A stretch of 46,134 bases of DNA from a phage, in sequence record PZ379182.1. One strand, written 5' to 3'. This document shows, in pieces, positions 11,352-46,134 of the stretch. Numbering within the stretch: position 1 is the first letter of the stretch; each line of letters starts with the position of its first letter. The translations under genes were made by a program, and so were the position numbers. The notes under the pieces are model-generated. The model saw nothing but the letters and a program-made list of their open reading frames with translations, did no database searches and had not been told where the DNA came from.

Positions 11352-11380
11352 AAAAAGCCCCGAAAGGGGCTTTATCTTTT
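11352..11380. terminator. bidirectional intrinsic terminator between convergent tail fiber and SSB genes
   Basis: AAAAAAAGCCCCGAAAGGGGCTTTATCTTTT; hairpin flanked by A-run and T-run. Confidence 0.75.
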
Positions 11381-11381
11381 A

Positions 11382-11837
11382 TCAGAATGGAATATCTCCG
11401 TCGAATGTGTTTTGCTGTTGTTGTTGTTGTTGTTGCTGTTGATGTTGTTGTTGCTGTTGATGTTGCGGTTGATGGCGCTGTTGTTGCTCTGTATTTTTAT
11501 GTTGCTGTGCACCCTCACCACGCTGACTAAACTCAAGACGAGGATTGTTCATGTTAATTGTTATGTAAGTCTTGCCATCTTTATCTCGAACATCTAATGC
11601 TAACGTCTCACAACTTACGCTAACAATCTTCCCTTCCTGAAACGCTTCGTTATACCATGTAAGCATTGATTCCTTTGCGAAGAAGACGGCACGATAGTTG
11701 CTATACTGAGATTGACCATCTTTATCCTTGTAACGCTCACTTAAATCAACCGCGTACATCTTCCAACTGCCATTTGCATTCTGACCTTCTTTAGTGAACG
11801 GAGCGCGACGGATAACACCAGTGATTACATGACTCAT
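11382..11837 (-). CDS. ssb: single-stranded DNA-binding protein with glutamine-rich linker
   Basis: 151 aa; OB-fold-like N-terminus, C-terminal acidic tail DGDIPF, poly-Q/H linker. Confidence 0.85.
   Translation of the reverse strand: MSHVITGVIRRAPFTKEGQNANGSWKMYAVDLSERYKDKDGQSQYSNYRAVFFAKESMLTWYNEAFQEGKIVSVSCETLALDVRDKDGKTYITINMNNPRLEFSQRGEGAQQHKNTEQQQRHQPQHQQQQQHQQQQQQQQQQNTFDGDIPF
11412..11495. repeat. CAG/CAA trinucleotide repeat tract encoding the SSB poly-glutamine linker
   Basis: Plus strand reads (TTG/CTG)n continuously over about 80 nt. Confidence 0.8.
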
Positions 11838-13768: not shown

Positions 13769-13900
13769 TTCTCTATCTCTCTATTGTTGTTTGCTTTCGA
13801 TGCGTTAATGATGCCGCACGCAAGACACACAGTCCAATTGGTATCACCGATTAATTAATCAAGTATACGCGTATAAATCCGTAACTATGTGTAGACATTG

Positions 13901-14155
13901 CCATTAGTTACGTTTTTCACCACTTCAGCCCAGCTATAGCTCAATGTAAATAGTGCGTATACCGTGTATACCGATTTTTGCGGAGGGTGCATAGTTATAT
14001 GCGCCACGCAATACTGTATAAAATCACATTATATAAAAATTATAACCGGAACACTCCAGAACAGTAGTTACATGATATACACAGTAATATATATAATAAT
14101 AATAATAAGAGTAAATGGTTGATATATATAGATATTATTATGTAACTATGGCGTA
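13901..14155. repeat. AT-rich regulatory/origin-like module, copy 1 (palindrome, (ATA/TAA)n microsatellite, 30-bp conserved core)
   Basis: GTTACGTTTTTCACC...CAGCCCAGCTATAGCT at 13901-13941, (ATA)n at 14086-14108, core GGTTGATATATATAGATATTATTATGTAAC at 14117-14146; the same blocks recur at 41546-41785. Confidence 0.7.
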
Positions 14156-14309
14156 TCAAAGCGTAACTAGGCGTATACGATTTCCCGCTGATGCATATGG
14201 TATACATAGAGTTACATCGGTTACGCGTAACCAACAGCACGAATAGCTAAAACTAATCCGCAAAACCATGTATAGTTGGTCACACAAAAAAACGAGAGAG
14301 GATTTCAAA

Positions 14310-16275: not shown

Positions 16276-16300
16276 AAGAAAAGGCCCCGAAAGGGGCCTA
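16276..16300. terminator. bidirectional intrinsic terminator between convergent operons
   Basis: AAAAGAAAAGGCCCCGAAAGGGGCCTAATCATTT. Confidence 0.75.
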
Positions 16301-16305
16301 ATCAT

Positions 16306-19300
16306 TTACCACACTCCAACTACAACCCTTCCACCATTCGGTAAATTAACTGTAATTCCATTATTGTTAATCTGAACAGTGTTGTTGGTTCCGTTAAACG
16401 CAAAGTTGCCGTTACTTGCGTACAGACTACCCCTTACAGTTGCATTGTTAAGTTCCGCACTGCCTGACTTATCAATGGCCCAACCCTGAGAACCAGCCAC
16501 GTAGTTATTAGATTGAATCCGGTTACCAATCTTCGCGTTAGTGATTGAACCATCCTGAATCACTGCGCTTTGAATGAATACCTGATTACCTTCAACTACG
16601 AAAGGCAATGACCACTGACCGGATCCAGAGCTAATGCCGTTACTGATTGCGAACCTGTTAGCATCGAAAATGAACTGACTACGAACGTTGCCACCAGATC
16701 CGGTTAGTTCCATGCTCATCCCTGAATTGTACTCAACCCCATTGTAAGTAAGACCCAGCTTAATGCCGTACTGCGCACCAATTGAATCAGCTGTAACGTA
16801 AGTATCCAGCTTCTCATTTAAAGCAGCTTCATTCTCACCGAGCCTTGCAGATAAAGCAGTGTCCGCAGTGGTCCTTGCTTGCGTTTCTTCCGCTAGCGCC
16901 GTATCAATCCTTGTCAACGAAGCCACAATCTCATCATCAATCTGCGCTTTAAGCTGCGTCAGAGCCTCTACGCGAGCCCTTTCTTCATCGGCGATAAGAT
17001 TCACAGCCTGAACAAATTCGGCCTTCCTCTTGCCGTTTTCCTTCGTCATTCTACGCACGTCACCATCATTAGCCAGGGCGTTCTCAATTATTGATTCCGC
17101 TTGCGCCTGAATAGCTCCGTTTGACTCAATGGCATTCTGTTGGAGATACTTGAACCCATCTGAGTTTTCTATATCAACCTTAATATCACCAATGATTGAC
17201 GACACATCATCGCTTGCCATACCCCTTACAAAATCAGTCCATGGTGAGACGTTACCAATCTTGTCAATCAGTCGCGCCCTGTACCAGATAACCTTTCCTG
17301 CCGGTAATGTAGTGTGCCAATACTCGTAACCCGGGTAAGGAACTAGCGTTAACAAACTGGCGTTCTCTGGTGAGTAAGTACCATCACCATTGTCGGCTAC
17401 TTGCTGCAATTCAGTGTATGACGTATCGGCTGAGTTTTCAGGGAAACCCCACTTAACCCTAATGCCAAATATTTCATCATCTGAAGCTGTGATTACCGTA
17501 GGCTCAGACGGCGTTCCAATTTTACCAGTTAGGCTTACTGAAACAATGTCAGACCATGCGGATACGTTTTCAGTATCAGAAACGGCCCTTACGCGAACCT
17601 GGTAAATTCCGGCATAGATACCTTCAATATCAACCTCTGTGCTTGCTGTGCGCGGCACGTTAATCCAGTTTCCGTTCTCCTTGCGCCACTGGACCGTGTA
17701 GGTTTTCGCGTACTGAACCTTGTCCCACGTGATTACCATTGTCTCAACTGATAAACCCTGAACAACCTTACTGTAACTGCTAACCTGAACATTCTCGGGT
17801 GCCAGTAATGTATCTGGCTCCACGATTGAAGTTGGCCTATCCTGAATGTTTACGCCGTAATCAATTTCGTCGTATTTATTCGGGTCGTACTCGACTGCCG
17901 TAATGCTGTAACCGAACGCATCGTCTCCATCGCTGTCTGCTTTTTGAATCCCGGTCACAACATATTGCTGAAGAGCAAGATTTTCCTTATCAATCGCAAA
18001 TACTGTGTCAGGCTGAGGAGTAAAGCTAAACGCTGTATTAAGTTGCAGCGTCATACCATCTTCAGATACAGATGCAATGGTCCTGTACTCTGGCATTCCA
18101 TCAGGCTTGTTTATTAGAATCCTGTCGCCAGCAGTAGCATCAATCTTAAATGGCACAAAAACTTGCAACCCACTTACTGACTCGATACGACCAGAAAGGT
18201 TAAGGGTGTAGTTGCTAGACCATGCCTGGTCATTAACTGCAATAACCTCACCAATCATTGGAATCATACCTTCCAGACCAGTAGTGAAACTAATAGTCTC
18301 GCTGCGAATGTTCGTCTTTAATAACCAGCGCCCTCGGCGGTTTGCCTCACTCCTGCGAGTACATCCAATAGCTGTAAGGTCGACCGGGTTGTAACCAAAA
18401 CGCCTTGTTGCCTCTAACTCGAATACTGGCTCAACATCCTGTTGGTATGAGTTTTCAACGTCATCAAACTGAACGTTGGCAACCGTGTAAAGTGACTTAT
18501 CGCTACCAAATGTACGGTTGAACAATCCATCAACAACGTTGTCATTGGTGAATACGTACGATGGTTGACGCGGCTTATCGACAACAATCCCTATCTGCTC
18601 GCCGTCATAGAATGTCAGCCCACGGAAGATAGAGCAAATATCACGGATTACCTGATATGCTTCAACTTTCTGCTGAATGACAACATCACACAGGTAGCGC
18701 GGCTCAACTCCACCCTTACCATCTGGAACCATCTGGTCACAGAATTGCGCCGCCTCATACAGACCCCACTTATCAATAGTAATGCCAAGCTCTCGCTGGT
18801 CAAGTCCGTAACGCTGATTCGTCACCAAGTCGTAAAGAACCCACGCCGGGTTATTGGAATACGCCATCTTAAAGGTGCCGTTCCAGGTTCCGCTGTAAGT
18901 CCTTGTCTCTGGGTTGTAGTTAGTTGGAACGCGAATCAACTTCCACTTCTTCTTGATTGAAATCGTCGGGATTCCGTTAGGGAAGAGGTCAGAACTGAAC
19001 TCAACGTAAACCAGCGCTGTAAGTGGGTAGCGGAATTTAGCATCAATTACTTCCTGATAGGTCGTAATTTGCATGTCGTTAACCAGCGTCGAACTTTCTG
19101 AATATGCCGTGATCTTACGAACCCTCACCAACGCACTCGAGAACTCAGCAGGAAGGTTAACCCTGATACTTCTGTCGTACCCGCTAGTTGTCTTGCCATT
19201 AGCTACTCCGCGCGTGTACTCAGTGTATGTAGCGCCATCAACGGACAGGTCAATCGCATACTCGCAAGTGGTACCGTTAAGATCTCCGTTACTTTCCTGA

Positions 19301-25275: not shown

Positions 25276-25840
25276 AAGTCAAAAACAATAAATCTCAGTA
25301 TGTATAATACATTAACACTTCGACTTTGGGGGTAAAATGTTTAAATATTTGTTTGATTATGATGGAATGAAATTGATATGGAAAAACCCAACATCACCTA
25401 GATTCACAAAGGGCGACGTTGCGGGAACTAAGCATAAGAGAGGATACATTCAAGTTTGCTTTAATAGGAAGCTATACCTTGCTCATAGGATAATATGGGA
25501 GATGCATCATGGCGAGATACCTGAAGGGATGCAGATTGACCATGTAAATCAGGACAAATCAGATAACAGGATTTCAAACCTAAGGCTAGTCACGCAGCAG
25601 GAAAACAAAAAGAACAAACCAAAGCAAGTAAGAAACTCTAGCGGAGTTAATGGTGTATCTTGGAATAAATCAAATGGAAAATGGCAGGTAAGGATAGGTG
25701 TAGATGGAAAAGATGTTCATCTTGGGTATTTTGATAACATTTCAGACGCTAAAAAAGCAAGATTCGATGCTGACTTTAGATTTAAATACCATGAAAATCA
25801 CGGTAACAAAAAGCGCCAGTAGGCGCTTTATTTTTTATCT
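25276..25840 (+). mobile_element. free-standing homing endonuclease cassette (promoter-like sequence, HNH-AP2 gene, terminator-like hairpin) inserted in the tail module
   Basis: TATAAT at about 25310 and GGGGGTAAAATG RBS upstream; AGCGCC-AGTA-GGCGCT hairpin plus T-run at the 3' end; opposite strand to every flanking gene. Confidence 0.6.
25337..25822 (+). CDS. HNH homing endonuclease with AP2 DNA-binding domain
   Basis: 161 aa; HNH motif region IDHVNQDKSDNRISNLRLVTQQEN and AP2-like GVSWNKSNGKWQVRIGVDGKDVHLGYF; antisense to the tail operon. Confidence 0.8.
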   Translation: MFKYLFDYDGMKLIWKNPTSPRFTKGDVAGTKHKRGYIQVCFNRKLYLAHRIIWEMHHGEIPEGMQIDHVNQDKSDNRISNLRLVTQQENKKNKPKQVRNSSGVNGVSWNKSNGKWQVRIGVDGKDVHLGYFDNISDAKKARFDADFRFKYHENHGNKKRQ

Positions 25841-26505: not shown

Positions 26506-26530
26506 CAATAAAAAACCCTCCGAAGAGGGT
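26506..26530 (-). terminator. intrinsic terminator after the major tail protein gene
   Basis: Minus strand CCCTC-TTCG-GAGGG followed by TTTTTTATT. Confidence 0.7.
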
Positions 26531-26535
26531 TAATT

Positions 26536-27195
26536 TTATACCAGTTCAGAAGCTACAGAACTCAGCCTACCACGGATAGATACTGCGATGGATACCGTTT
26601 CGATTTCGTTGACACCAATGCTAGGGGTGTCGTTGAAAGCGATAGTGCCAGACTGAAGGCGCATCTCACTAGCGCGAGGTACGAACAGACGAATAGCAAC
26701 AACAGTACCAGCTTCGTCATAGTTACGCAGAATCGGATATACCGGGTTGGTGTATTCGTGCGCAAACGTGTAGGTGTTGGTTACCGCAGACTTATAAGTT
26801 GGAATCTGCTGCTCACGATCATCAGATAAACACTGGAAGTTAACGAACTGCTGTTCGCCGCCATCAGTGGATACGTCCTGAACACAAGGAACTTCAAACC
26901 AAGTAAGAATCTTAACAACTTCACCAGTTAAGCCAGCTGGGAACTTAGTGGTGTTGGAGGTATCAATACCTTCAACAGTTACGGTTGAACCAGATACCTC
27001 GGTAACGCGAACTTGCTTATCAGCCAGCAGGGTCGAAGCTGAGCTGGTAAATAGCAGGTAATCACCGCGTGCAATATCAGCAACGCTGGACAAAGTTAAA
27101 ACAGGAGTAACAGCATTGGAAATTGCAGTTACGTCGATAGCAGCTCCGCGAGAGCCTTCTACGAACACCTGGGTGCCGTTTGATAAGTGAGCCAT
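26536..27195 (-). CDS. major tail protein
   Basis: 219 aa; position just upstream of the G/T chaperones, followed by a strong terminator. Confidence 0.7.
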   Translation of the reverse strand: MAHLSNGTQVFVEGSRGAAIDVTAISNAVTPVLTLSSVADIARGDYLLFTSSASTLLADKQVRVTEVSGSTVTVEGIDTSNTTKFPAGLTGEVVKILTWFEVPCVQDVSTDGGEQQFVNFQCLSDDREQQIPTYKSAVTNTYTFAHEYTNPVYPILRNYDEAGTVVAIRLFVPRASEMRLQSGTIAFNDTPSIGVNEIETVSIAVSIRGRLSSVASELV

Positions 27196-37129: not shown

Positions 37130-37205
37130 TGGTGTTCCGCACTGGACTCGAACCAGTAACTAAGACTTAGGAGGTCTTTGCGTTATCCTGTTACGCCAGC
37201 AGAAC
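37130..37205 (-). tRNA. tRNA-Arg (anticodon CCU, reads AGG)
   Basis: 76 nt folded by eye: acceptor GTTCTGC/GCGGAAC (one G-U), D-arm GCGT/ACGC, anticodon stem AAGAC/GTCTT with loop CUCCUAA, T-arm ACTGG-TTCGAGT-CCAGT, encoded CCA. Confidence 0.8.
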
Positions 37206-37591: not shown

Positions 37592-38390
37592 CAAAACTCC
37601 TCAGTTATAAGCATCTTGCCACAATCTTTGCACTCGTAGAATGCACATGCTTTCACCAACTAATAGACTTGGTTTTGTTGACTCGTGGTACTTGCATCGT
37701 TTAGCGCTTTAATGTCAAAATCGTTAATGATTTGATGTGAACACGTAAACGTAGCGATGCTTGTGATTGATTTCTTTATTATTCATAAAGGCTATTCCCA
37801 TTCTGATCATGGCCTACGCGACATTTTCTATAACCAGCAATCCACACAAATTTGTCTCGAGCAATTAGTGTCGAAACCGGCCCCCACACTTGAGTAATCA
37901 GCGCTGCCACTACCTTATCATCTTTCTTCTTTGCGCCCAAGTTTGCCGTATTCGTCATTCAGCTTATCAGCCTGTCGCTTGACTGCGTTAAAGTATGCGT
38001 CGTCTAATCCGAACATTATTCATCATCCTCCTCGCATGCTATGAGACTATCGCAATTATCACGGCATCGCAAATGCCTTTGGTGCTTTAGCTATTCGTGG
38101 CTGTAAATCAAGTCAGCAATGACTTAACAAATTCGATCTGGAGTAACCATCTCATTCGCTTCGTATGGCTCTATGCAATCTCTTCGTTGTATGAATGAGT
38201 TGAACGTTATCATGGCAAATCCGATGCGCTGTCATGCAATTACGCAATTCGTGCGTATGCCATTTCTTATCTTCACGCTCTTTCCATAGATTTCAGTTAG
38301 CTCGTAAGTACATTCATGGCATCTTCGCCAGTCTTAGCCTCATCCATGCATCCGTGCAGGCCCACTGGCTTGGTGTTTCGTAGTTATCCA

Positions 38391-38516
38391 TTAGTAAACA
38401 AGAGCCTCGTGGTTTGCTATGTAAAGCTCCTCATCGTGCTTGTTTTTAATGAAGTACCCATTGCCATCTTCGCTAGGCTCTGCATAGAATACGTCGCCAT
38501 GCTTTAAGCGCGCCAT
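38391..38516 (-). CDS. hypothetical small protein (41 aa)
   Basis: Read by eye: GGTGAGGA RBS then MARLKHGDVFYAEPSEDGNGYFIKNKHDEELYIANHEALVY; below track cut-off. Confidence 0.3.
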   Translation of the reverse strand: MARLKHGDVFYAEPSEDGNGYFIKNKHDEELYIANHEALVY

Positions 38517-38571
38517 ATAATCATCCTCACCAATGATATACGATCTTAATCATGCAATCACCTCACTTAAA

Positions 38572-38706
38572 TTATAGTTCGTTAGAATCGCTTTTAGCGT
38601 CATCTACGGCTGCTGAAATCATGTAAATAATCATGAAGCCCAATGACCAGAGTAACCATGGCAATGCTTCAACCAGAAATTCACCCATCATTAACCCAGT
38701 ATGCAT
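38572..38706 (-). CDS. small membrane protein (about 44 aa)
   Basis: Track ORF 38572..38760; internal ATG at about 38706 follows GAGGAT; one hydrophobic helix LVEALPWLLWSLGFMIIYMI. Confidence 0.4.
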   Translation of the reverse strand: MHTGLMMGEFLVEALPWLLWSLGFMIIYMISAAVDDAKSDSNEL

Positions 38707-38716
38707 TTCTCTATCC

Positions 38717-39139
38717 TCAGATTTTGTTAATTTGCTCAAACTTCTCAAACCAGAAAACAACTGGATCCTCCACTATGGAGATGAGGCCGAACCGCTCTGC
38801 CGTGCGAAAATTCATGCTGCTCTTACGCCCGCGAGCTACTTGAAGAGACACCTGTTCCCTGAACATTTCAAGGGAATAGCAAGTTTTCATGAGGTTGCAT
38901 GGAGCACATGCAGGGTAAAGGTTTTCCATTCGATCAGCTTGTGGTCGATTAAACTCACCTGTCGCCTTCAGCTTGAAAGTTCCTTTCTCCGCTGCCTTCA
39001 TGCATACCTCAGATTTACGTAGCACCGGTTCAACATGGTCAGCATGCCAGCCTTTCTCAGGTAGTTCACACCCACAATAAGCGCAGCGACCACCGAACTT
39101 GCCCTTCAACTCTTCCCTTTGAGATTTGCTTAATTTCAT
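38717..39139 (-). CDS. HNH endonuclease (zinc-ribbon type)
   Basis: 140 aa; CAYCGC...H..H...CAPCN motif arrangement. Confidence 0.8.
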   Translation of the reverse strand: MKLSKSQREELKGKFGGRCAYCGCELPEKGWHADHVEPVLRKSEVCMKAAEKGTFKLKATGEFNRPQADRMENLYPACAPCNLMKTCYSLEMFREQVSLQVARGRKSSMNFRTAERFGLISIVEDPVVFWFEKFEQINKI

Positions 39140-39149
39140 TTTATAAACC

Positions 39150-39329
39150 TTAAATTTTATTCAATTGATCAAGAATCTCGAAAGCCAGTTCTCGAGCTTG
39201 CTCTTCATTTAAGTGGATAGTATGAACCTTAGGTTCATCATGCAAACCGAAAGCCTGGGCGATGATAAATGTTGTGTAACCATCGAAGTTGTTAGCCTGG
39301 AGCTTAGGGTTACTTTGCTGTAATTTCAT
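39150..39329 (-). CDS. hypothetical protein (about 59 aa)
   Basis: ORF read by eye (MKLQQSNPKLQANNFDGYTTFIIAQAFGLHDEPK...); start overlaps upstream stop. Confidence 0.35.
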   Translation of the reverse strand: MKLQQSNPKLQANNFDGYTTFIIAQAFGLHDEPKVHTIHLNEEQARELAFEILDQLNKI

Positions 39330-39544
39330 TCTTCGACCACCTTGTACTCGCCTTCTTCAAAACTAACCATCTGTCCTATTGATACTAACTCAGTATCACG
39401 AATCGCTCGAGCTGATAAGCTACCACACCCGAACCGACCGGTTACTTCTAATACGTCACCAACTCTTAAACCCGCATGTGCTTCAAGCTGTCAGAACGCC
39501 TTACTTCTGGTATGTAGTTCACGTCGATGAATTTTAATTTTCAT
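39326..39544 (-). CDS. hypothetical protein with an in-frame TGA at codon 18
   Basis: MKIKIHRRELHTRSKAF-TGA-QLEAHAGLRVGDVLEVTGRFGCGSLSARAIRDTELVSIGQMVSFEEGEYKVVEE read in one frame; coordinates approximate. Confidence 0.3.
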
Positions 39545-39770
39545 ATCTATACTCCATCTCGTTGTCGATGTGGTAATTATGCCGGATTTCTCCGGCAATT
39601 GTTTATGCAATGTCATGCTATTCACCGAGTTTCATCACGAAGAACATAACACTCAACACCTCTTCAAGAACGTCCAGCTGAGATTTCGCATCATTCGTAA
39701 TACTCATAAGCTCGAATATGCTTAACGCTGTTGAATTTTCCTGTATAGCTCATGTCCTGAACGTAATAAA

Positions 39771-40004
39771 TCATTTCTTTGTCGCCTTATCCCAGTTAGT
39801 GAGGTAGCCAGCATTCTGGATGCTTAGAGCTTCGTACTGGCGAGATGACTCGAAGTCTGATACGTCGAACTGCTGGTTGTTGATTTGTGCGCCAGTCTCT
39901 TTTACGACACGCATCTGCTCAAAGGTCAGCGTTGAATGCATTTGCTTCATGATGATTGATTTAAGGATTGCTGCATCTTTCTCTGACAGGTTAATTGTAA
40001 TCAT
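39771..40004 (-). CDS. hypothetical protein
   Basis: 77-aa ORF in the leftward early series. Confidence 0.45.
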   Translation of the reverse strand: MITINLSEKDAAILKSIIMKQMHSTLTFEQMRVVKETGAQINNQQFDVSDFESSRQYEALSIQNAGYLTNWDKATKK

Positions 40005-40234
40005 TTCGTTTGTTCCAGGTAAGTTTTCATCTTGTTCAGTGAGTCTATTGCGTCATCAAGGTCTGTAATTACGTCCTTGTGGCCTCGTAAACCCATGCAT
40101 AGAAGCTTTTTGATTGCATGCTGACACGCCGGGTCTGTAACGTTGAACGCTGATAGCGTGCGATACACATCAACAATAGCACGCTCGCCATTAAGCCCGA
40201 TAATCTCTCTTTCATATTTGCTCCTTTCCATCAC
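40001..40234 (-). CDS. hypothetical protein
   Basis: 77-aa ORF; stop/start overlap with the downstream gene. Confidence 0.45.
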   Translation of the reverse strand: MMERSKYEREIIGLNGERAIVDVYRTLSAFNVTDPACQHAIKKLLCMGLRGHKDVITDLDDAIDSLNKMKTYLEQTK

Positions 40235-40307
40235 ATCCTCTTTTGCTTTGCTTCAATAAGGCCACTATATCAAATGGCCTTGCGGAAGGTTTAGCAATTC
40301 GTGCTAT

Positions 40308-40493
40308 TCAAAACTTAACATCAATTATGACTTCAACCATCTCCTGCCCAAGCCGGTAGGAGTCGCCCCAAAGAAGTAGTCCCATAAACTCATCCTTACT
40401 AAAAGTGTTGGCATTTACAGTTCTAAGATAGCCACGATGGATAACAGTATCGCCAATCTTAACTTCGCTCTTATGTACCATTTTAGTTTTCAT
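40308..40493 (-). CDS. hypothetical protein
   Basis: 61-aa ORF; stop immediately precedes a cassette motif copy. Confidence 0.45.
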   Translation of the reverse strand: MKTKMVHKSEVKIGDTVIHRGYLRTVNANTFSKDEFMGLLLWGDSYRLGQEMVEVIIDVKF

Positions 40494-40548
40494 GCTGTTT
40501 CTCCAGTTGTCTTATTGAGGCACCCCGCGAGATGCCTTGTAAGATAAC

Positions 40549-40737
40549 TCAGTAGCAGGTAGCCAGGAAGTCGGCGATACCTTTTGAGGTTGCTTCCGGC
40601 ATACTACGTACTGCAACATCGTAACCAGCCTCAACCTTTGCAATCGCTGACTCTTCGTTGTATCCGAACATTGTCAGGATGGTGATTACGTTTTCTTTAT
40701 TCAGGACTTTAAGTTCTTTAGTGATGCGCTTAGCCAT
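40549..40737 (-). CDS. hypothetical protein
   Basis: Track ORF 40549..40809; ATG at about 40737 follows AAGGA and lies downstream of cassette copy 40745-40821. Confidence 0.45.
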   Translation of the reverse strand: MAKRITKELKVLNKENVITILTMFGYNEESAIAKVEAGYDVAVRSMPEATSKGIADFLATCY

Positions 40738-40744
40738 TTTCGTT

Positions 40745-40821
40745 TTCCTTTGTGCCTCTCGTTTCGATGAGATAATTATGCCATCCATGGCATTATATGC
40801 GTTAGGCAAAAAGTGCTATTT
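40745..40821 (-). promoter_or_regulatory. intergenic cassette copy
   Basis: Minus strand AAATAGCACTTTTTGCCTAA, TGCCATGGATGGCA hairpin, CATAATTATCTCATCGAAACGAGAGG. Confidence 0.55.
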
Positions 40822-40926
40822 CCATTCAGTAGTAATTTAGCTTTCCGATATAAATCCATAGCCACCCCAACCTCATCCTCATCCTCACTGTACCGCGGAT
40901 GGTATGGTAGTAGACTACCATACCCA

Positions 40927-41448
40927 CTATTTAGTCTCCTTAATCATTTCTTGGTATGCGTTAATCATTGATACTGCACCCTTAAGTTCATCACCTTCAA
41001 GACCAGCGACGCTTGGTGATAGTTTCAACAATCGAGCCTTGAACCTTTCAATGGTAGCCGCCTCCTTCTCTTGCTCTGCTTTGCTTCTTGAGCCGGATTT
41101 TACAGCGCCAGGAACCAGGCTAAGTGATGCGCAGTATGTCTCACTCTCGCCCTCAAAGTCGGTAAAACTAAGTGAGAACCTTGAGCGCACGTCAGCCGCC
41201 TTAATCTCAGGCATTCGGCTTACGGTGTTTGAAACGTATGACGCTTTTAGTTTTGGCATGTGGTATTCACCACCAGGTAGAAACTCCTCACCACTTAGCG
41301 ATACGAACGTCTCACGACTCATGCCGAAGTATTGACGAGCAATCATGGTCACAGGGACTGTGCACACTTTGTCTTCTGACTTGAGCGCCTGACTCGCCAT
41401 GTATCGAATGATTTCACCCAAACTTACTGCTTCTTTATGTTCTGACAT
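40927..41448 (-). CDS. hypothetical protein, first gene of the long leftward operon
   Basis: 173-aa ORF; AGGAG RBS 8 nt before the ATG. Confidence 0.55.
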   Translation of the reverse strand: MSEHKEAVSLGEIIRYMASQALKSEDKVCTVPVTMIARQYFGMSRETFVSLSGEEFLPGGEYHMPKLKASYVSNTVSRMPEIKAADVRSRFSLSFTDFEGESETYCASLSLVPGAVKSGSRSKAEQEKEAATIERFKARLLKLSPSVAGLEGDELKGAVSMINAYQEMIKETK

Positions 41449-41545
41449 ATTCGTTACTCCTGATTGGTTGCTCTTCGTTAAGATGAAACCATGGTATCAT
41501 GAATATACGCGTTATCAAGTGTTATGTTGTGTTTATATCTGCATT

Positions 41546-41785
41546 GGTTACGCTTTTTGACCTCTCAGCCCAGCTATAGCTGGTGTAATTACCCTGTGTA
41601 AGATTTTACGCGGATTCGCCGGGGGTATGCATATGTATCTATATAGATAAAATTAGTAGTTTTCATAGAAAAACTATCGACCCATCCATACGACCAATCT
41701 ACACCATATACATACATATATATAATAATAATAATAATATAGTAAAAGGTTGATATATATAGATATTATTATGTAACCATTGCGT
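41546..41785. repeat. AT-rich regulatory/origin-like module, copy 2
   Basis: GTTACGCTTTTTGACC, perfect 14-bp palindrome CCAGCTATAGCTGG at 41570-41583, (ATA/TAA)n at 41715-41740, core GGTTGATATATATAGATATTATTATGTAAC at 41748-41777. Confidence 0.7.
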
Positions 41786-42295
41786 AATCTAGCGTGGTAG
41801 GCGTGTATGATTCTTCGGAAGCGCACCTCATATACACACCATAACTTCGATAACGTGTATATCCAAATTGGCTCAGCAAGAATCAAAATCAACTTGTATG
41901 GTAGTCCATCCACCATTCATTCACCCCACATCGATCATTGCAAATTCTGCAACAATCAAAAACATCATTGCATTCGATGCAATATTGCTATATGTGCAAT
42001 AATGAGATGAATCATTGCAATAGCTGCAACAATCTATAAATCCAACGAATAGCACTTTTTGCTAATGCACAATCATTAGTAAGTTGCTACTATGTATTCA
42101 TCGAAACGGTGCTGGACTCTGAGTCACTTCCGAAAGGAACCAAAAGAGTGAACGACACCGCGCAATGTGAGGAAGCGTTACCTTACCCACCAAAGCGCCT
42201 TGCGGGTCCTTTTGATAGGATGCCGGGCCGGGTTTAAAATCCCGAGTTGTAGTGAGTACGTTGAAGAGATTTCGATAACAAGAAAACATAGAGAG

Positions 42296-42466
42296 ATGAC
42301 AGTGATGACAGAAAAAACAGTTGGTTACAGTTACAGTAATGGTCATTGGGTTGTTGAGTTAAAAGGGTTTCACAAGTACCCAAAATTAAGTTTCTTCATG
42401 ACAGAAGATGATGCAAAGTCTTGGGTTCAGGTTCTTAAAGAAAGGTGGTTTAAAAATGAAACTTAA
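42296..42466 (+). CDS. hypothetical protein (first rightward early gene)
   Basis: Track ORF 42167..42466; first ATG at about 42296 after a long leader. Confidence 0.4.
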   Translation: MTVMTEKTVGYSYSNGHWVVELKGFHKYPKLSFFMTEDDAKSWVQVLKERWFKNET

Positions 42467-42641
42467 AGACGAAGCATTTGAGCAATTAAAGCAGGAATGT
42501 GCGCTGACTGGATTGAACAGTGACTATACTGATATGGTTTTACGCGGACGCATCGATATCGACCTTGCTAAGCAATTCCAGTCAGATGATGAATATCTGT
42601 GCTGCGATGGCCTTGGCTGCGACGAATGTTTACCCTGGTAA
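42456..42641 (+). CDS. hypothetical small protein with C-terminal Cys cluster
   Basis: Track ORF 42408..42641; ATG at 42456 follows GGTGG; CCDGLGCDEC at C-terminus. Confidence 0.45.
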   Translation: MKLKDEAFEQLKQECALTGLNSDYTDMVLRGRIDIDLAKQFQSDDEYLCCDGLGCDECLPW

Positions 42642-42652
42642 GGAGCCGAATA

Positions 42653-42844
42653 ATGAAAGTTAAGTGCTTAAATAATCTTAATGATGGAACCTGGGAATTC
42701 AGTAGTGGAAAGCATTACAGTTATGATGAAATTTATGGTTACGTAGTTGGTGATAACTTCAAGCCAGTTTACTGCTACATTGAAAATGGCCTTGTTATTG
42801 CCGCTGTTAAGCGTCGATTGATTTTTGAAATTTTAGAGGATTAA
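42653..42844 (+). CDS. hypothetical protein
   Basis: Track ORF 42599..42844; ATG at 42653 follows AAGGAG. Confidence 0.45.
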   Translation: MKVKCLNNLNDGTWEFSSGKHYSYDEIYGYVVGDNFKPVYCYIENGLVIAAVKRRLIFEILED

Positions 42845-42845
42845 C

Positions 42846-43049
42846 ATGAAACTTCTTTGCACTAACATAATTAAAGACTTTAACGACGCCTTCAATAAGG
42901 GCTCTGAATACAACGCTACCGAGTTTAAAGATGATATGTGCCTTGTTACCGGCGAACGTCCACACAAGCATCACGACACGTTCCAGGCGCTTAAATGCCT
43001 TGATTACGTAATCATCCACGGCATCGCAACTTTTAAGGTGATTGAATAA
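42846..43049 (+). CDS. hypothetical protein
   Basis: 67-aa ORF; GAGGA RBS. Confidence 0.45.
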   Translation: MKLLCTNIIKDFNDAFNKGSEYNATEFKDDMCLVTGERPHKHHDTFQALKCLDYVIIHGIATFKVIE

Positions 43050-43213
43050 TGCTTTTACCATCTGATATAAACTATTTCGATCTGGAAATAATTAGTGCTT
43101 ACAGCGGAAAGGGTTGGCCTTGCGGGGACTGGTTTAACGAGGACCTGCTTGAGTCTCACGAGATTATGTTGAAGGCAATTGAGAAGGCCAGAAAAAATAG
43201 CACTAATTGCTAA
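43049..43213 (+). CDS. hypothetical protein (about 54 aa)
   Basis: Read by eye; 3' end overlaps a cassette motif and encodes NSTNC, as do two other genes. Confidence 0.35.
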   Translation: MLLPSDINYFDLEIISAYSGKGWPCGDWFNEDLLESHEIMLKAIEKARKNSTNC

Positions 43214-43270
43214 AACTCACCGCCACGGATGGCGTATATTTACTCCATCGAAACGAAAGAGAGCAAGAGA
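43193..43270 (+). promoter_or_regulatory. intergenic cassette copy
   Basis: AAAATAGCACTAATTGCTAAAA, CGCCACGGATGGCG hairpin, TATATTTACTCCATCGAAACGAAAGAGAG. Confidence 0.6.
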
Positions 43271-43272
43271 TC

Positions 43273-43392
43273 ATGTTCGACAACTTTTATGACGAGATGG
43301 AAGAGGCGGTTTTCATGGCGTCGCTAGATGGTAAGATTTACGGTTTAGTTCAGAAGTTTGATAAGATTGTTGTGCGTATTGTGCGCAAATAA
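43273..43392 (+). CDS. hypothetical small protein
   Basis: Track ORF 43207..43392 begins at TTG inside the cassette; ATG at 43273 follows the conserved CGAAACGAAAGAGAG box. Confidence 0.35.
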   Translation: MFDNFYDEMEEAVFMASLDGKIYGLVQKFDKIVVRIVRK

Positions 43393-43433
43393 GTACCAAA
43401 CAAATTCATGTGGAAAACTAAGAGATTAAAATA

Positions 43434-43823
43434 ATGACTACTACGATAACCAAAAATTTCATTAGCAACGACAACAAGCTATTTAAAGCTCGCGTTAAAA
43501 AGATTCACCAGTGGGTTAACGGTGTCGCTGAGGAAGTTGAATTTGAGCAAATCAAAAAAGACGGCAAATGGATCAACCTGGAAGAACGTGGAAAATACAT
43601 TAAAACCAAAACTCTTTACTGCACAAAGGTTAACCATAAGTCTGGCGTTAAGAAAGACTTCAAAGAAGGTAAGCGATACCAGGTCAACATGCATAGCGGA
43701 CTTGGTCAGTCAGCTGGATACATTTACGATGAAGATGGCAACGCCTGGCAGCTATATCGCAGCGAAGATGTTGGCTTTTATACGTTGTGTGAAACTTACC
43801 ACTTTGAGGCTCAATACAAATGA
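43434..43823 (+). CDS. hypothetical protein
   Basis: 129-aa ORF. Confidence 0.5.
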   Translation: MTTTITKNFISNDNKLFKARVKKIHQWVNGVAEEVEFEQIKKDGKWINLEERGKYIKTKTLYCTKVNHKSGVKKDFKEGKRYQVNMHSGLGQSAGYIYDEDGNAWQLYRSEDVGFYTLCETYHFEAQYK

Positions 43824-43990
43824 AATTATACATTGTAAGTGGTTGCACACACTATGATGGAAGCGAAGTGATTGCCGCTTTCGATGAAGAATTCAAAGCA
43901 CAGGAGTTTAAATATAACAAAGAAATATCTTCAGAAAATCACTTTGACTACTACAAGATAGATTGCATCTTACTAAATAGCACTAATTGA
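43820..43990 (+). CDS. hypothetical protein (about 56 aa)
   Basis: Read by eye; ATGA overlap with upstream stop; ends in a cassette motif variant. Confidence 0.3.
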   Translation: MKLYIVSGCTHYDGSEVIAAFDEEFKAQEFKYNKEISSENHFDYYKIDCILLNSTN

Positions 43991-44050
43991 TAATGCATTA
44001 TAAGCGGCTATTGATATAATGGCCGCTCAGAAACAATGCGGAGAGAAGTA

Positions 44051-45634
44051 ATGTTTGATTTCAATGAAGATAAACTATCTGTTGAGCAAGTTATGGCGAT
44101 CGCTGCCAATGACAACCTACCACCGCTTCGCGTGGCTATTAATGCCAATGGCTATCGACAGTCTCAATCGTTCTGGAAAGCACCTGTCGAGATTGATACA
44201 GGTAATGATAAGTATCCAGTAATCTCACTCGGTAATGATATTGATGTTGTTGGTAAGCTATCGGCTAATATCGCTCGCTCGGTTCAGTTCCCTGAGTCGT
44301 CAGCTTACATGCACTTTCTTGGTTGTGTTTCTGCTGCAATGCTTGGGCGTTTTACTGTCGAGTATCATGGAACCCAACAGCCAACATCTTTGTACGTGGT
44401 AACAAGTCAGCCGCCTTCAACTGGTAAATCAGCCATTAACTCGCTATCAATTGCGCCGATGATTGCTGAGACTGAGCGGTTGAATGAAGTACGTAAACGT
44501 GATCGAAAAAAGATTATGGCTAAACTGTCCGCTCTGGCTAAAGAGATGAAGCAGGAGAAATCACCTTCTGAAATGGCTTCACTTTTTGAGGAGAAGGAGG
44601 ATTTAGAGGAGAAGCTCGAGAAGCTATGCGATATAGTATTCCCTGTCTCCGATACTACTCCGGAAGGTCTTGCGCGAATCAACAATCGCCAGGGTAATTT
44701 TGCGGTAATCTCTGATGAGGCTACTAGCGTCAACTCACTGTTAGGCATGACTTACGGTGATGGCTCGAAGAAAACGAACAGCGAGCTCGTGCTGAAAGCA
44801 TGGGATGCAGGTAATGTGTCAATTGCCCGTGCGAACGCAGAAAATAACATGAGCTTTGTGGCTATGGGATGCATCTCCGTAATTGCTCAGGATGAAACAA
44901 TCAATGCCATTATGAATGCTGGTGCGCGTGGTATTGGTGTATCTGAGCGTTTCCTTCTGGTGCGTGAAAAATCATTTCTTGGCGACCGTGTATTTGTTGA
45001 TGAAAATGGTGATTCAACCTATGAGGCTATTGATGGCGGCCTGAAAGCAGACTATTTCCGTCTTGTTCATGAGATTATGAATGAAGTTGAAGTGAAACTT
45101 ACTGTAAGCGCGTCATCAATGCGTTACCTTAACCGCGCTCGTCAAGAGATGGAGCCTCATCTTGGTGATGGTGGCAAGTATTCTCACACAATGTTGCGCG
45201 GTGCTCTTGGTAAGTTTGATAAGCAAGCAATCCGCATCGCTTCTGTTCTGCACGTAATTCGTAACTGGTTCTCACCAGCCGGATCCAGCCCTCAAAAGTC
45301 AAGAGAGATTGAACTGGATACAATGCAGGAAGCGGTTATGATTTTCAACGAACTAAGCAAGACTTATTTATCATCCGCTAGTGCTGCTGGTCATGCTGGT
45401 GACAATGCCGAGATGAACAAGCTGGTTGATATCCTGATTAAGCAGGGCAAGAATGGTAAAGGTGTTGTTGGTGTTCGCTCGTTGTATGAGGCTGCACGCA
45501 AGGTTAAACCTTTTGAAGCTCAGGCTGGAATTATGACTCGCATTAAGGACCACTTGATTCCTATGCTTGATGAGAAAAACTACACATGCCTGATTGGTGA
45601 TAAAATTTACATTAATCCACGATTGCTGGGGTAA
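44051..45634 (+). CDS. P-loop NTPase (Walker A/B), possible replication ATPase/helicase
   Basis: Track ORF 44036..45634; ATG at 44051 follows GGAGAG; Walker A-like SQPPSTGKSA and Walker B-like FAVISDE. Confidence 0.55.
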   Translation: MFDFNEDKLSVEQVMAIAANDNLPPLRVAINANGYRQSQSFWKAPVEIDTGNDKYPVISLGNDIDVVGKLSANIARSVQFPESSAYMHFLGCVSAAMLGRFTVEYHGTQQPTSLYVVTSQPPSTGKSAINSLSIAPMIAETERLNEVRKRDRKKIMAKLSALAKEMKQEKSPSEMASLFEEKEDLEEKLEKLCDIVFPVSDTTPEGLARINNRQGNFAVISDEATSVNSLLGMTYGDGSKKTNSELVLKAWDAGNVSIARANAENNMSFVAMGCISVIAQDETINAIMNAGARGIGVSERFLLVREKSFLGDRVFVDENGDSTYEAIDGGLKADYFRLVHEIMNEVEVKLTVSASSMRYLNRARQEMEPHLGDGGKYSHTMLRGALGKFDKQAIRIASVLHVIRNWFSPAGSSPQKSREIELDTMQEAVMIFNELSKTYLSSASAAGHAGDNAEMNKLVDILIKQGKNGKGVVGVRSLYEAARKVKPFEAQAGIMTRIKDHLIPMLDEKNYTCLIGDKIYINPRLLG

Positions 45635-45637
45635 TTT

Positions 45638-45973
45638 ATGTACCTGCTCGACCTGTATAATTTCTGCGAAGGATACAAGAACTTCAACCGCCAGCACCTG
45701 GCAAGATTCATCTATAAGCACAAGGATTGCGCAAGGATGGCCAAGGCTGCCGGGGTTGATGAAAGGTATTTTGCCTCAAGTTGCTCGAAGGAGTTTATGG
45801 CGAGAATGCTTACGGCTGGGTATCTTGATGGAGTTAATGGAGTGTACTGGTGTAAGGGTTCAATTAAGCGACCATTTCAGTTTGAATTCATGAGCCTTGA
45901 AGGTAGGTCCAGTGATTACGTCAGTGAGATGATGAACATAGCCAACATGAGTGATGACGAATTGTTTGCATAA
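45638..45973 (+). CDS. hypothetical protein
   Basis: 111-aa ORF followed by a strong terminator. Confidence 0.5.
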   Translation: MYLLDLYNFCEGYKNFNRQHLARFIYKHKDCARMAKAAGVDERYFASSCSKEFMARMLTAGYLDGVNGVYWCKGSIKRPFQFEFMSLEGRSSDYVSEMMNIANMSDDELFA

Positions 45974-46006
45974 AAATAGCCCCATTACGGGGCTTTTTTG
46001 TTTTTC
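45974..46006. terminator. bidirectional intrinsic terminator
   Basis: AGCCCC-ATTAC-GGGGCT flanked by A-run and T-run. Confidence 0.7.
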
Positions 46007-46134
46007 CTGAATATCATTAAGAGCAGAATGATGATGACGCAAAACATGATTCCACTCCCAATCCACGGGATTGCAGACGAATCATTGTTGGTGATTTCAA
46101 TCTTCTCAGCCGTGATTGTTGATGCCTTGATTGA
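45985..46134 (-). CDS. hypothetical membrane protein, C-terminal fragment (gene continues beyond window)
   Basis: Frame open from the window edge to a TAA in the terminator loop; C-terminal hydrophobic segment IMFCVIIILLLMIF. Confidence 0.3.
   Translation of the reverse strand, partial: SIKASTITAEKIEITNNDSSAIPWIGSGIMFCVIIILLLMIFRKNKKAP

Follow-up and report, generated by a model that had tools for sequence, protein, structure and literature searches.

This study analyzed the region at positions 41449-42295 of a 46,134-nucleotide phage DNA (sequence record PZ379182.1; this whole stretch is referred to as the window), and the results revealed that positions 42100-42276 on the plus strand very probably form a structured RNA domain of approximately 177 nt. 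The RNA is a new family-level entity that had not been catalogued previously. Immediately downstream lies a gene for a 53-aa protein, and the RNA and the gene co-occurred without exception among the homologues found. The best overall explanation, in which we place middling confidence, is that the new structured RNA and the small gene constitute one accessory unit, with a cis-acting leader as the likeliest role of the RNA.

The window belongs to a T1-like phage (Drexlerviridae, Braunvirinae), and its closest genome is that of Escherichia phage ES (approximately 94% identity across 85% of 38000-46134). T1-like phages are classic coliphages and frequent laboratory and industrial contaminants, and they are genetically tractable; to our knowledge, gene regulation in these phages has hardly been studied. 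The region 41449-42295 is a conserved divergent control region that matched 134 phage records. Its left neighbour is the leftward DUF7174 gene (40927-41448), and on its right a block of small rightward genes leads to the rightward DUF3987 helicase gene (44036-45634), with a strong bidirectional terminator at 45978-45994 closing the block. GC-hairpin terminators with A-runs and T-runs to either side (AAAAAGCCCCGAAAGGGGCTTT-type) were found at 11352-11384, 16279-16311, 25808-25840, 26511-26543, and 45978-45994; they sit at convergent or module boundaries and probably act as intrinsic terminators in both directions. Between the DUF7174 gene and the first rightward gene, the ORFs were all short, of low complexity, or non-conserved, and relatives showed 1- and 2-nt indels within 41449-42295, which confirmed the description of this interval as non-coding in an initial annotation made from the sequence alone. 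That annotation had missed the strict linkage to the small gene, the insertion-like character of the unit, and the fact that the RNA accounts for only about a third of the 850 bp, the remainder being DNA-level control sequence.

Structure and conservation of the leader RNA

The RNA domain was delimited by using alignments, RNAalifold, pair counts, and a covariance model. It comprises six helices on the plus strand, of which P1 (AUCGAAA/UUUCGAU; 42100-42106/42270-42276) closes a junction of the five others. P2 (42108-42111/42156-42159, plus 42113-42114/42154-42155), together with P2b (42116-42120/42145-42149) and P2c (42128-42131/42136-42139), contains an internal loop and then a hairpin capped on P2c by an invariant GAAA tetraloop (42132-42135). 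The remaining pairings are P3 (42160-42163/42195-42198), P3a (42167-42172/42181-42186), P4 (42203-42210/42217-42225), P5 (42226-42232/42241-42248), and P6 (42250-42254/42259-42263). The GC-rich inverted repeat that the initial annotation had singled out in the leader (GCCGGGCCGGG..CCCGAG) proved to be real and corresponded to the 3' strand of P4 together with helix P5.

The comparative evidence for this fold was obtained from 14 distinct homologous sequences, which span just 82-97% identity. Standard pairs occupied 98.4% of the 728 pair cells, and compensatory double changes were identified in eight pairs (one in P1, two in P2, two in P2c, one in P4, and two in P5). P2c occurred in three haplotypes (UUCC/GGAA, UCUC/GAGA, and UCCC/GGGA), and P5 carried two compensatory pairs in L147, a contig locus described below. 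None of 500 shuffles matched the observed paired cells, double-change cells, or covariation score; two further shuffle measures failed to beat their controls, and slid controls were 36-43% paired with 0-2 double-change pairs. G.U pairs constituted 12.9% of the cells, and the minus-strand reading paired in only 87.0% of them. This strand-asymmetric pairing indicates that the plus strand is the functional single strand. Junction and loop nucleotides of the RNA were near-invariant and the stems covaried; across the wider alignment, a near-invariant core was set against a variable promoter spacer, linker, and coding sequence.

The minimum free energy (MFE) fold of 42097-42280 alone recovered P1, P2, P2b, P2c, P3, P4, and P5, and the single-sequence MFE was not significant (z = -0.83). 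P3, P3a, and P6 never varied, and their support thus comes from folding alone. Pseudoknot and tetraloop-receptor pairings considered by eye (GAGUCAC, CCCACCAAA, and the P4/P5 loops) received no covariation support. A covariance model (R1), for which 10 sequences were used, gave scores of 211-231 bits at 15 loci and matched nothing else in 389 kb, a set that included T1-like loci lacking the RNA. The initial annotation had suggested a structured 5' UTR, to be checked by structure prediction and covariance analysis across related phages. This suggestion was supported: across those phages the fold was kept with its eight compensated pairs, and the comparative evidence points to a P1-closed, multi-helix, plus-strand RNA. 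A short conserved ORF that would explain the interval, which the annotation had named as a finding that would speak against its proposal, was sought inside the RNA and was not found.

Several frames across the RNA were considered as coding sequences and rejected. The longest (GTG at 42167; ORF 42167-42466) contains a stop codon in L144, one of the homologous contigs; it showed approximately 10 non-synonymous versus approximately 2 synonymous changes in a hand count, and it is in frame with the first gene here and out of frame in other lineages. The ORF at 42109-42237 is broken by a 1-nt indel. Two hypothetical proteins have been annotated over the RNA in database records, namely ATI17140 (IMM-001; L008, 100-246) and ACG-M12_0077 (L010, 147-302). 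Because their frames were not conserved between lineages, neither was accepted as a gene, and these database ORFs are probably over-annotations.

The RNA did not correspond to a known family. An Rfam 15 scan of the whole window at gathering thresholds returned only a tRNA gene at 37133-37205 (minus strand, 58.9 bits); a tRNA-Arg has been reported for related T1-like phages in the AHP24 and SU57 papers. Rfam 15 E-value scans (E <= 10) of 42030-42330 and of the L147 copy, the most divergent one, yielded best scores of 9.8-18 bits against thresholds of 30-70, and no credible family emerged from permissive scanning of three sub-regions in all. The RNA had no BLASTN match in 5,426 complete E. coli genomes, which suggests that it is no obvious host-RNA mimic or prophage element, and the RNA sequence itself was not found in literature searches.

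Partner gene, linkage, and distribution of the unit

The RNA is followed by an A-rich, unstructured linker with a ribosome-binding site (GAGAG; 42277-42304, plus strand) and then by the partner gene (42305-42466, plus strand). In all homologues, 21-27 nt separate the RNA model from the ATG, although the linker sequence diverges. The partner protein has 53 aa (56 aa if started at 42296), and its homologues have 50-58 aa. Its model adopts a beta-beta-beta-alpha fold (AF2 pLDDT 91.5), a predicted topology like that of small nucleic-acid-binding proteins. Searches with the protein found no Pfam match (nothing beyond noise at E <= 10) and no PHROG family; the weak matches included dsRBDs, AP2 domains, and UPF0339.

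Among 50,697 phage records, BLASTN detected the whole leader in 10 (IMM-001, four T145P1 records, two ACG-M12 records, SCS31, ECH1, and G8), and the partner protein, searched by tblastn, matched the same 10 records as the RNA. Most T1-like phages shared only the cassette and the first approximately 40 nt of the leader in the BLASTN comparison. Further copies of the RNA were present in the metagenome contig L138, the only real one among eight matches of the metagenome scan, and in contigs L144-L151, which encode homologues of the downstream protein. IMG/VR scans with three specific RNA patterns revealed no copy; an IMG/VR scan with a GC-rich 15-mer returned 120 chance loci, a subset of which served as negative background for the covariance model only. 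The GTDB genome scans yielded no true copy and one chance match, which the model rejected, and none of five IMG/VR loci seeded by the neighbouring DUF7174 protein carried the RNA. Searched exhaustively with HMMER, 1.8 billion representatives yielded only three clusters of the small protein (50% identity), each with the RNA upstream, and one of the three was present in 83 index blocks of the assembly collection.

The comparison with phage ES revealed that the RNA and the gene together form a single clean insertion of approximately 390 bp, which lies between the cassette motif described below and a gene that ranks second here but first in ES. Judged from this alignment, the RNA and the gene are a moron-like unit placed at the putative cassette promoter. 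The absence of the module from the closest relative makes isogenic comparisons straightforward. The nucleotide identity of the RNA far exceeded that of the ORF in the same pairs of loci (90.8% versus 51.2% between L009 and L147, and 93.0% versus 60.7% between L009 and L138), which indicates a much stronger constraint on the RNA than on its partner.

The unit was also identified at positions 2257-2653 of L147, a Logan SRR32406211 contig with a context that is not T1-like; an Ant/pRha gene lies downstream, and the neighbours had no PHROG matches. In L147, the unit stands behind its own canonical sigma-70 promoter (TTGACT-17-TACATT), and P1 starts at the predicted +1, the same RNA position as A42100 in the window. 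The L147 RNA was 90.8% identical to the T145P1 copy, the DNA upstream of it was unrelated, and the L147 ORF showed 43% amino-acid identity to the protein of the window. This occurrence suggests that the unit moves horizontally as a whole, and the evidence indicates that the RNA and the gene have probably moved between unrelated phages.

Putative cassette promoter and upstream DNA elements

The region 41449-42295 contains one copy of the ATAGCACnnnTTGCTAA family cassette, whose motif ATAGCACTTTTTGCTAA (TAGCA-N5-TGCTA) at 42049-42065 on the plus strand is an exact match to the family motif, as the initial annotation had recognized. The cassette set comprised 17 copies with <=2 mismatches, aligned across the window; the 15 best are at 1293 (-), 2380 (-), 4724 (-), 7232 (-), 7740 (+), 8783 (-), 12586 (-), 14234 (+), 14983 (+), 34368 (-), 40291 (-), 40803 (-), 42049 (+), 43197 (+), and 43977 (+). 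The motif always points with local transcription (about 15 copies in the window). A TAnnnT-like hexamer follows approximately 21-23 nt past the motif at most cassettes, and 11 cassettes exhibit CA or TA exactly 7 nt beyond this hexamer, usually inside a conserved CATCGAAACGA; a ribosome-binding site and then a start codon come next. The motif also often overlaps the stop codon of the preceding gene, an (A)GACA-like sequence occupies the -35 position after it, and the spacer usually contains an inverted repeat with a CA-AGGA-TG centre. One spacer hairpin with a T-rich -10 was flagged as terminator-like (43221-43234).

A 21-nt intergenic direct repeat, aaATAGCACnnnTTGnTAAAA, has been described in phage TLS and noted also in T1, Rtp, and Rogue1, and its authors list the function of the TLS-type repeat as unknown (PMC11447400). 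The sequence at 42049-42065 is an exact member of this Drexlerviridae 21-nt repeat, ATAGCACnnnTTGnTAA(AA), according to the published consensus (PMC11447400). Similar to the TLS repeat, the 42049 copy is intergenic and oriented with transcription; unlike the norm of the family, in which the repeat lies approximately 76 nt upstream of a start codon, it lies 256 nt away. The corresponding distance from motif start to start codon was 69-89 nt at 13 other measured cassettes, and relatives without the insert displayed a normal distance of approximately 80 nt. The long distance at 42049 is thus explained by the inserted structured RNA, and the 42049 copy is a member of the repeat family with an expanded leader. 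The long leader proposed by the initial annotation was therefore upheld, whereas its placement of the first gene at 42296 was not, the conserved start codon being the ATG at 42305.

The arrangement of the cassette looks like that of a promoter, possibly an activator-dependent one, with a fixed +1, and the 21-nt repeat may be its upstream half. This provides a testable model for the 21-nt repeats as upstream promoter halves with a fixed +1. For the 42049 cassette, the -10-like hexamer is TACTAT (42088-42093, plus strand), and a CA context 7 nt further on gives A42100 as the predicted +1. With transcription starting at A42100, the structured domain would be the extreme 5' end of the rightward mRNA. 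A transcription start site map of T1-like phages was not found in the searchable literature.

A 45-nt segment occurs at 1251-1295 and at 39561-39605 (91% identity between the two sites), and its minus strand carries the cassette spacer hairpin (GCCGGAnnnnTCCGGC), the -10, and CATCGA(A/C)AAC. No ATAGCAC motif was detected at <=3 mismatches upstream of the 39561-39605 copy, which may thus be a cassette variant without the upstream motif.

Upstream of the cassette, a consensus scan identified a leftward candidate promoter of the sigma-70 type, TTGATA-16-TACCAT, whose -10 is preceded by TG (41491-41518, minus strand), from which we infer a putative promoter of the DUF7174 gene starting at 41448. 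The TATACGCGT part of this candidate is kept in the other copy of an AT-rich non-coding module. The two copies, 41490-41880 and 13850-14230, are direct copies of approximately 400 bp with an alignment-wide column identity of 75%, so that the second module copy mentioned in the initial annotation was verified, and both sit in divergent intergenic regions. Within the copy at 41490-41880 lie a perfect palindrome, CAGCTATAGCTG, at 41571-41582 and, at 41700-41795, an (ATA)n/TATATATAGATATTATTATGTAAC core; the elements shared between the copies are the palindrome CAGCTATAGCT(G/C), TATACGCGT, and the (ATA)n core. The module is widely conserved in Drexlerviridae, and its copies are candidates for paired promoter/UP regions or for ori/crr-like replication elements.

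Between the module and the cassette, 41935-42030 holds four 15-bp palindromes, TTGCA-N5-TGCAA (41938-41952, 41968-41982, 41985-41999, and 42015-42029), embedded in GCAACAATC repeats. They are the only exact copies in the window and its sole cluster, and they share the format of the cassette palindrome TAGCA-N5-TGCTA. The array was near-invariant across several Drexlerviridae genera (14 loci), both where the RNA occurs and where it is missing. The palindromes presumably bind a dimeric protein immediately ahead of the putative cassette promoter, and an operator array or an origin-like function is a candidate role for the DNA-level elements upstream of the RNA.

Mechanistic interpretation and relation to known systems

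As a particular mechanism, we tentatively propose a cis-acting RNA, which would serve its partner gene as a leader and be bound by the partner protein. The foot of P1 would sit at the 5' edge of the ribosome footprint, and a protein-RNA complex at this foot could set the translation of the message, the stability of its 5' end, or both; the same complex may be the working form of the module. A more doubtful extension is that the RNA and its 53-aa partner are a mobile phage ribonucleoprotein (RNP) module of a new kind. The near-invariant RNA would then be the first product of the early promoter, chaperoned by a mini nucleic-acid-binding protein, and its target may be a conserved host component, such as a defence sensor, an RNase, or the translation or transcription machinery.

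The features that set this RNA apart also bear on other readings. Its P1 encloses an autonomous domain whose edge coincides with the predicted 5' end, the copy in an unrelated phage is still approximately 91% identical, suggesting that an external partner is conserved, and the unit is a moron-like insertion in the early region, the typical home of host-takeover and anti-defence functions. These observations would suit a stable non-coding RNA acting in trans, either as an RNP subunit with its target elsewhere or by sponging up or decoying a host factor or defence protein, that is released from the 5' end of the mRNA, with the small protein as a cofactor or merely co-transferred. We consider this unlikely, given that no terminator or recognisable processing site follows P1, that the RNA resembles neither E. 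coli sequences nor Rfam families, and that the constant spacing of 21-27 nt to the start codon fits a cis role better. A riboswitch, that is, an aptamer that senses the state of the host through a small molecule or ion and gates the first early gene or genes, would likewise place the RNA in cis and would account for its 5'-UTR position, its P1-closed multi-helix junction, and its near-invariant junctions and loops among covarying stems. It would, however, require an expression platform, and the leader has no terminator, no conserved anti-Shine-Dalgarno pairing, and a linker that is A-rich and unpaired. What follows the RNA is in every case the gene for one tiny phage protein rather than a metabolic or transport gene, the taxonomic range of the RNA is very narrow, and no riboswitch model matched at E <= 10 except for a 9.8-bit Lysine fragment outside the RNA, all of which make this reading decidedly improbable. 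The regulatory attenuator put forward in the initial annotation is also unsupported because no intrinsic-terminator-like site occurs in 41200-42600; the RNA leads instead into the A-rich linker, the ribosome-binding site, and the start codon. A small RNA, which the annotation had also listed, may be produced from the interval.

The layout of a promoter, a long structured leader, and a small first gene of an early operon also recalls processive antitermination of the lambda nutL-N or HK022 put type, in which RNA polymerase would be altered by the RNA, alone or together with the protein, so as to pass through downstream hairpins. Downstream cassettes do carry hairpins before T-rich -10s, one of them the terminator-like 43221-43234. 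Against this, the operon is expressed in most T1-like phages even though they lack the unit, boxA- or boxB-like sequence was not visible by reading, the partner protein lacks an arginine-rich motif, and each cassette seemingly has its own promoter, so that read-through is not obviously needed; we regard antitermination as even less probable than a riboswitch. The least probable reading is that the segment does not function as RNA at all and is a DNA element (an origin, a single-strand initiation signal, a pac site, or a protein-binding site), a small ORF, or a product of recent horizontal spread. It lies in a conserved control region beside replication genes, several database records are linearised in this intergenic region upstream of the RNA, and the homologues are closely related. 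A DNA element would nevertheless not be expected to exhibit strand-asymmetric G.U pairing (98.4% versus 87.0%) or eight compensated pairs, and the segment is absent from most relatives, which replicate and package normally; the frames of a small ORF are broken by an indel and a stop codon. Flanks and the adjacent ORF have diverged to 34-61% identity with the RNA held at 89-93%, which argues against mere recency.

The analysis identified an RNA of approximately 177 nt with comparative support and linked it to one particular tiny protein; the two form a unit that appears to have moved between unrelated phages. If a riboswitch, an RNP, or an anti-defence decoy were the true function, the RNA would represent a new RNA class in a readily dissected E. 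coli system.

The unit shares features with several known systems. Similar to lambda pL-nutL-N and HK022 put, it places a promoter-proximal structured leader before a small first gene of an early operon, and the RNA could be bound by the protein encoded behind it. It differs from them in that no boxA (CGCTCTTTA-like) was recognized by reading in 42049-42305, no boxB was present, and the protein is not an arginine-rich peptide; moreover, the lambda and HK022 elements consist of one or two hairpins, whereas this RNA has six helices and most relatives do without it. Type III toxin-antitoxin loci (ToxIN-like) also combine an RNA directly upstream of a protein gene in a mobile two-part unit and are often phage-related. 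The present unit has no tandem repeats inside 42100-42276 and no terminator between RNA and gene, and its partner has 53 aa and no family, unlike the endoribonuclease toxins of approximately 150-200 aa. With riboswitch aptamers and Rfam orphans, the RNA has in common a 5'-UTR site, a P1-closed junction, conserved junction nucleotides, and covarying stems, and it differs from riboswitches in lacking an expression platform, an association with a metabolic gene, and a model match. Autogenous operators are usually small and co-evolve with their protein, whereas this RNA has approximately 177 nt and is far more conserved than the protein. Nevertheless, similar to ribosomal-protein leaders, the T4 gene 32 and regA operators, and Mu com-mom, the unit sets a structured element beside a ribosome-binding site, and, as in autogenous leaders, the spacing is fixed to the start codon of a gene whose product may bind the RNA.
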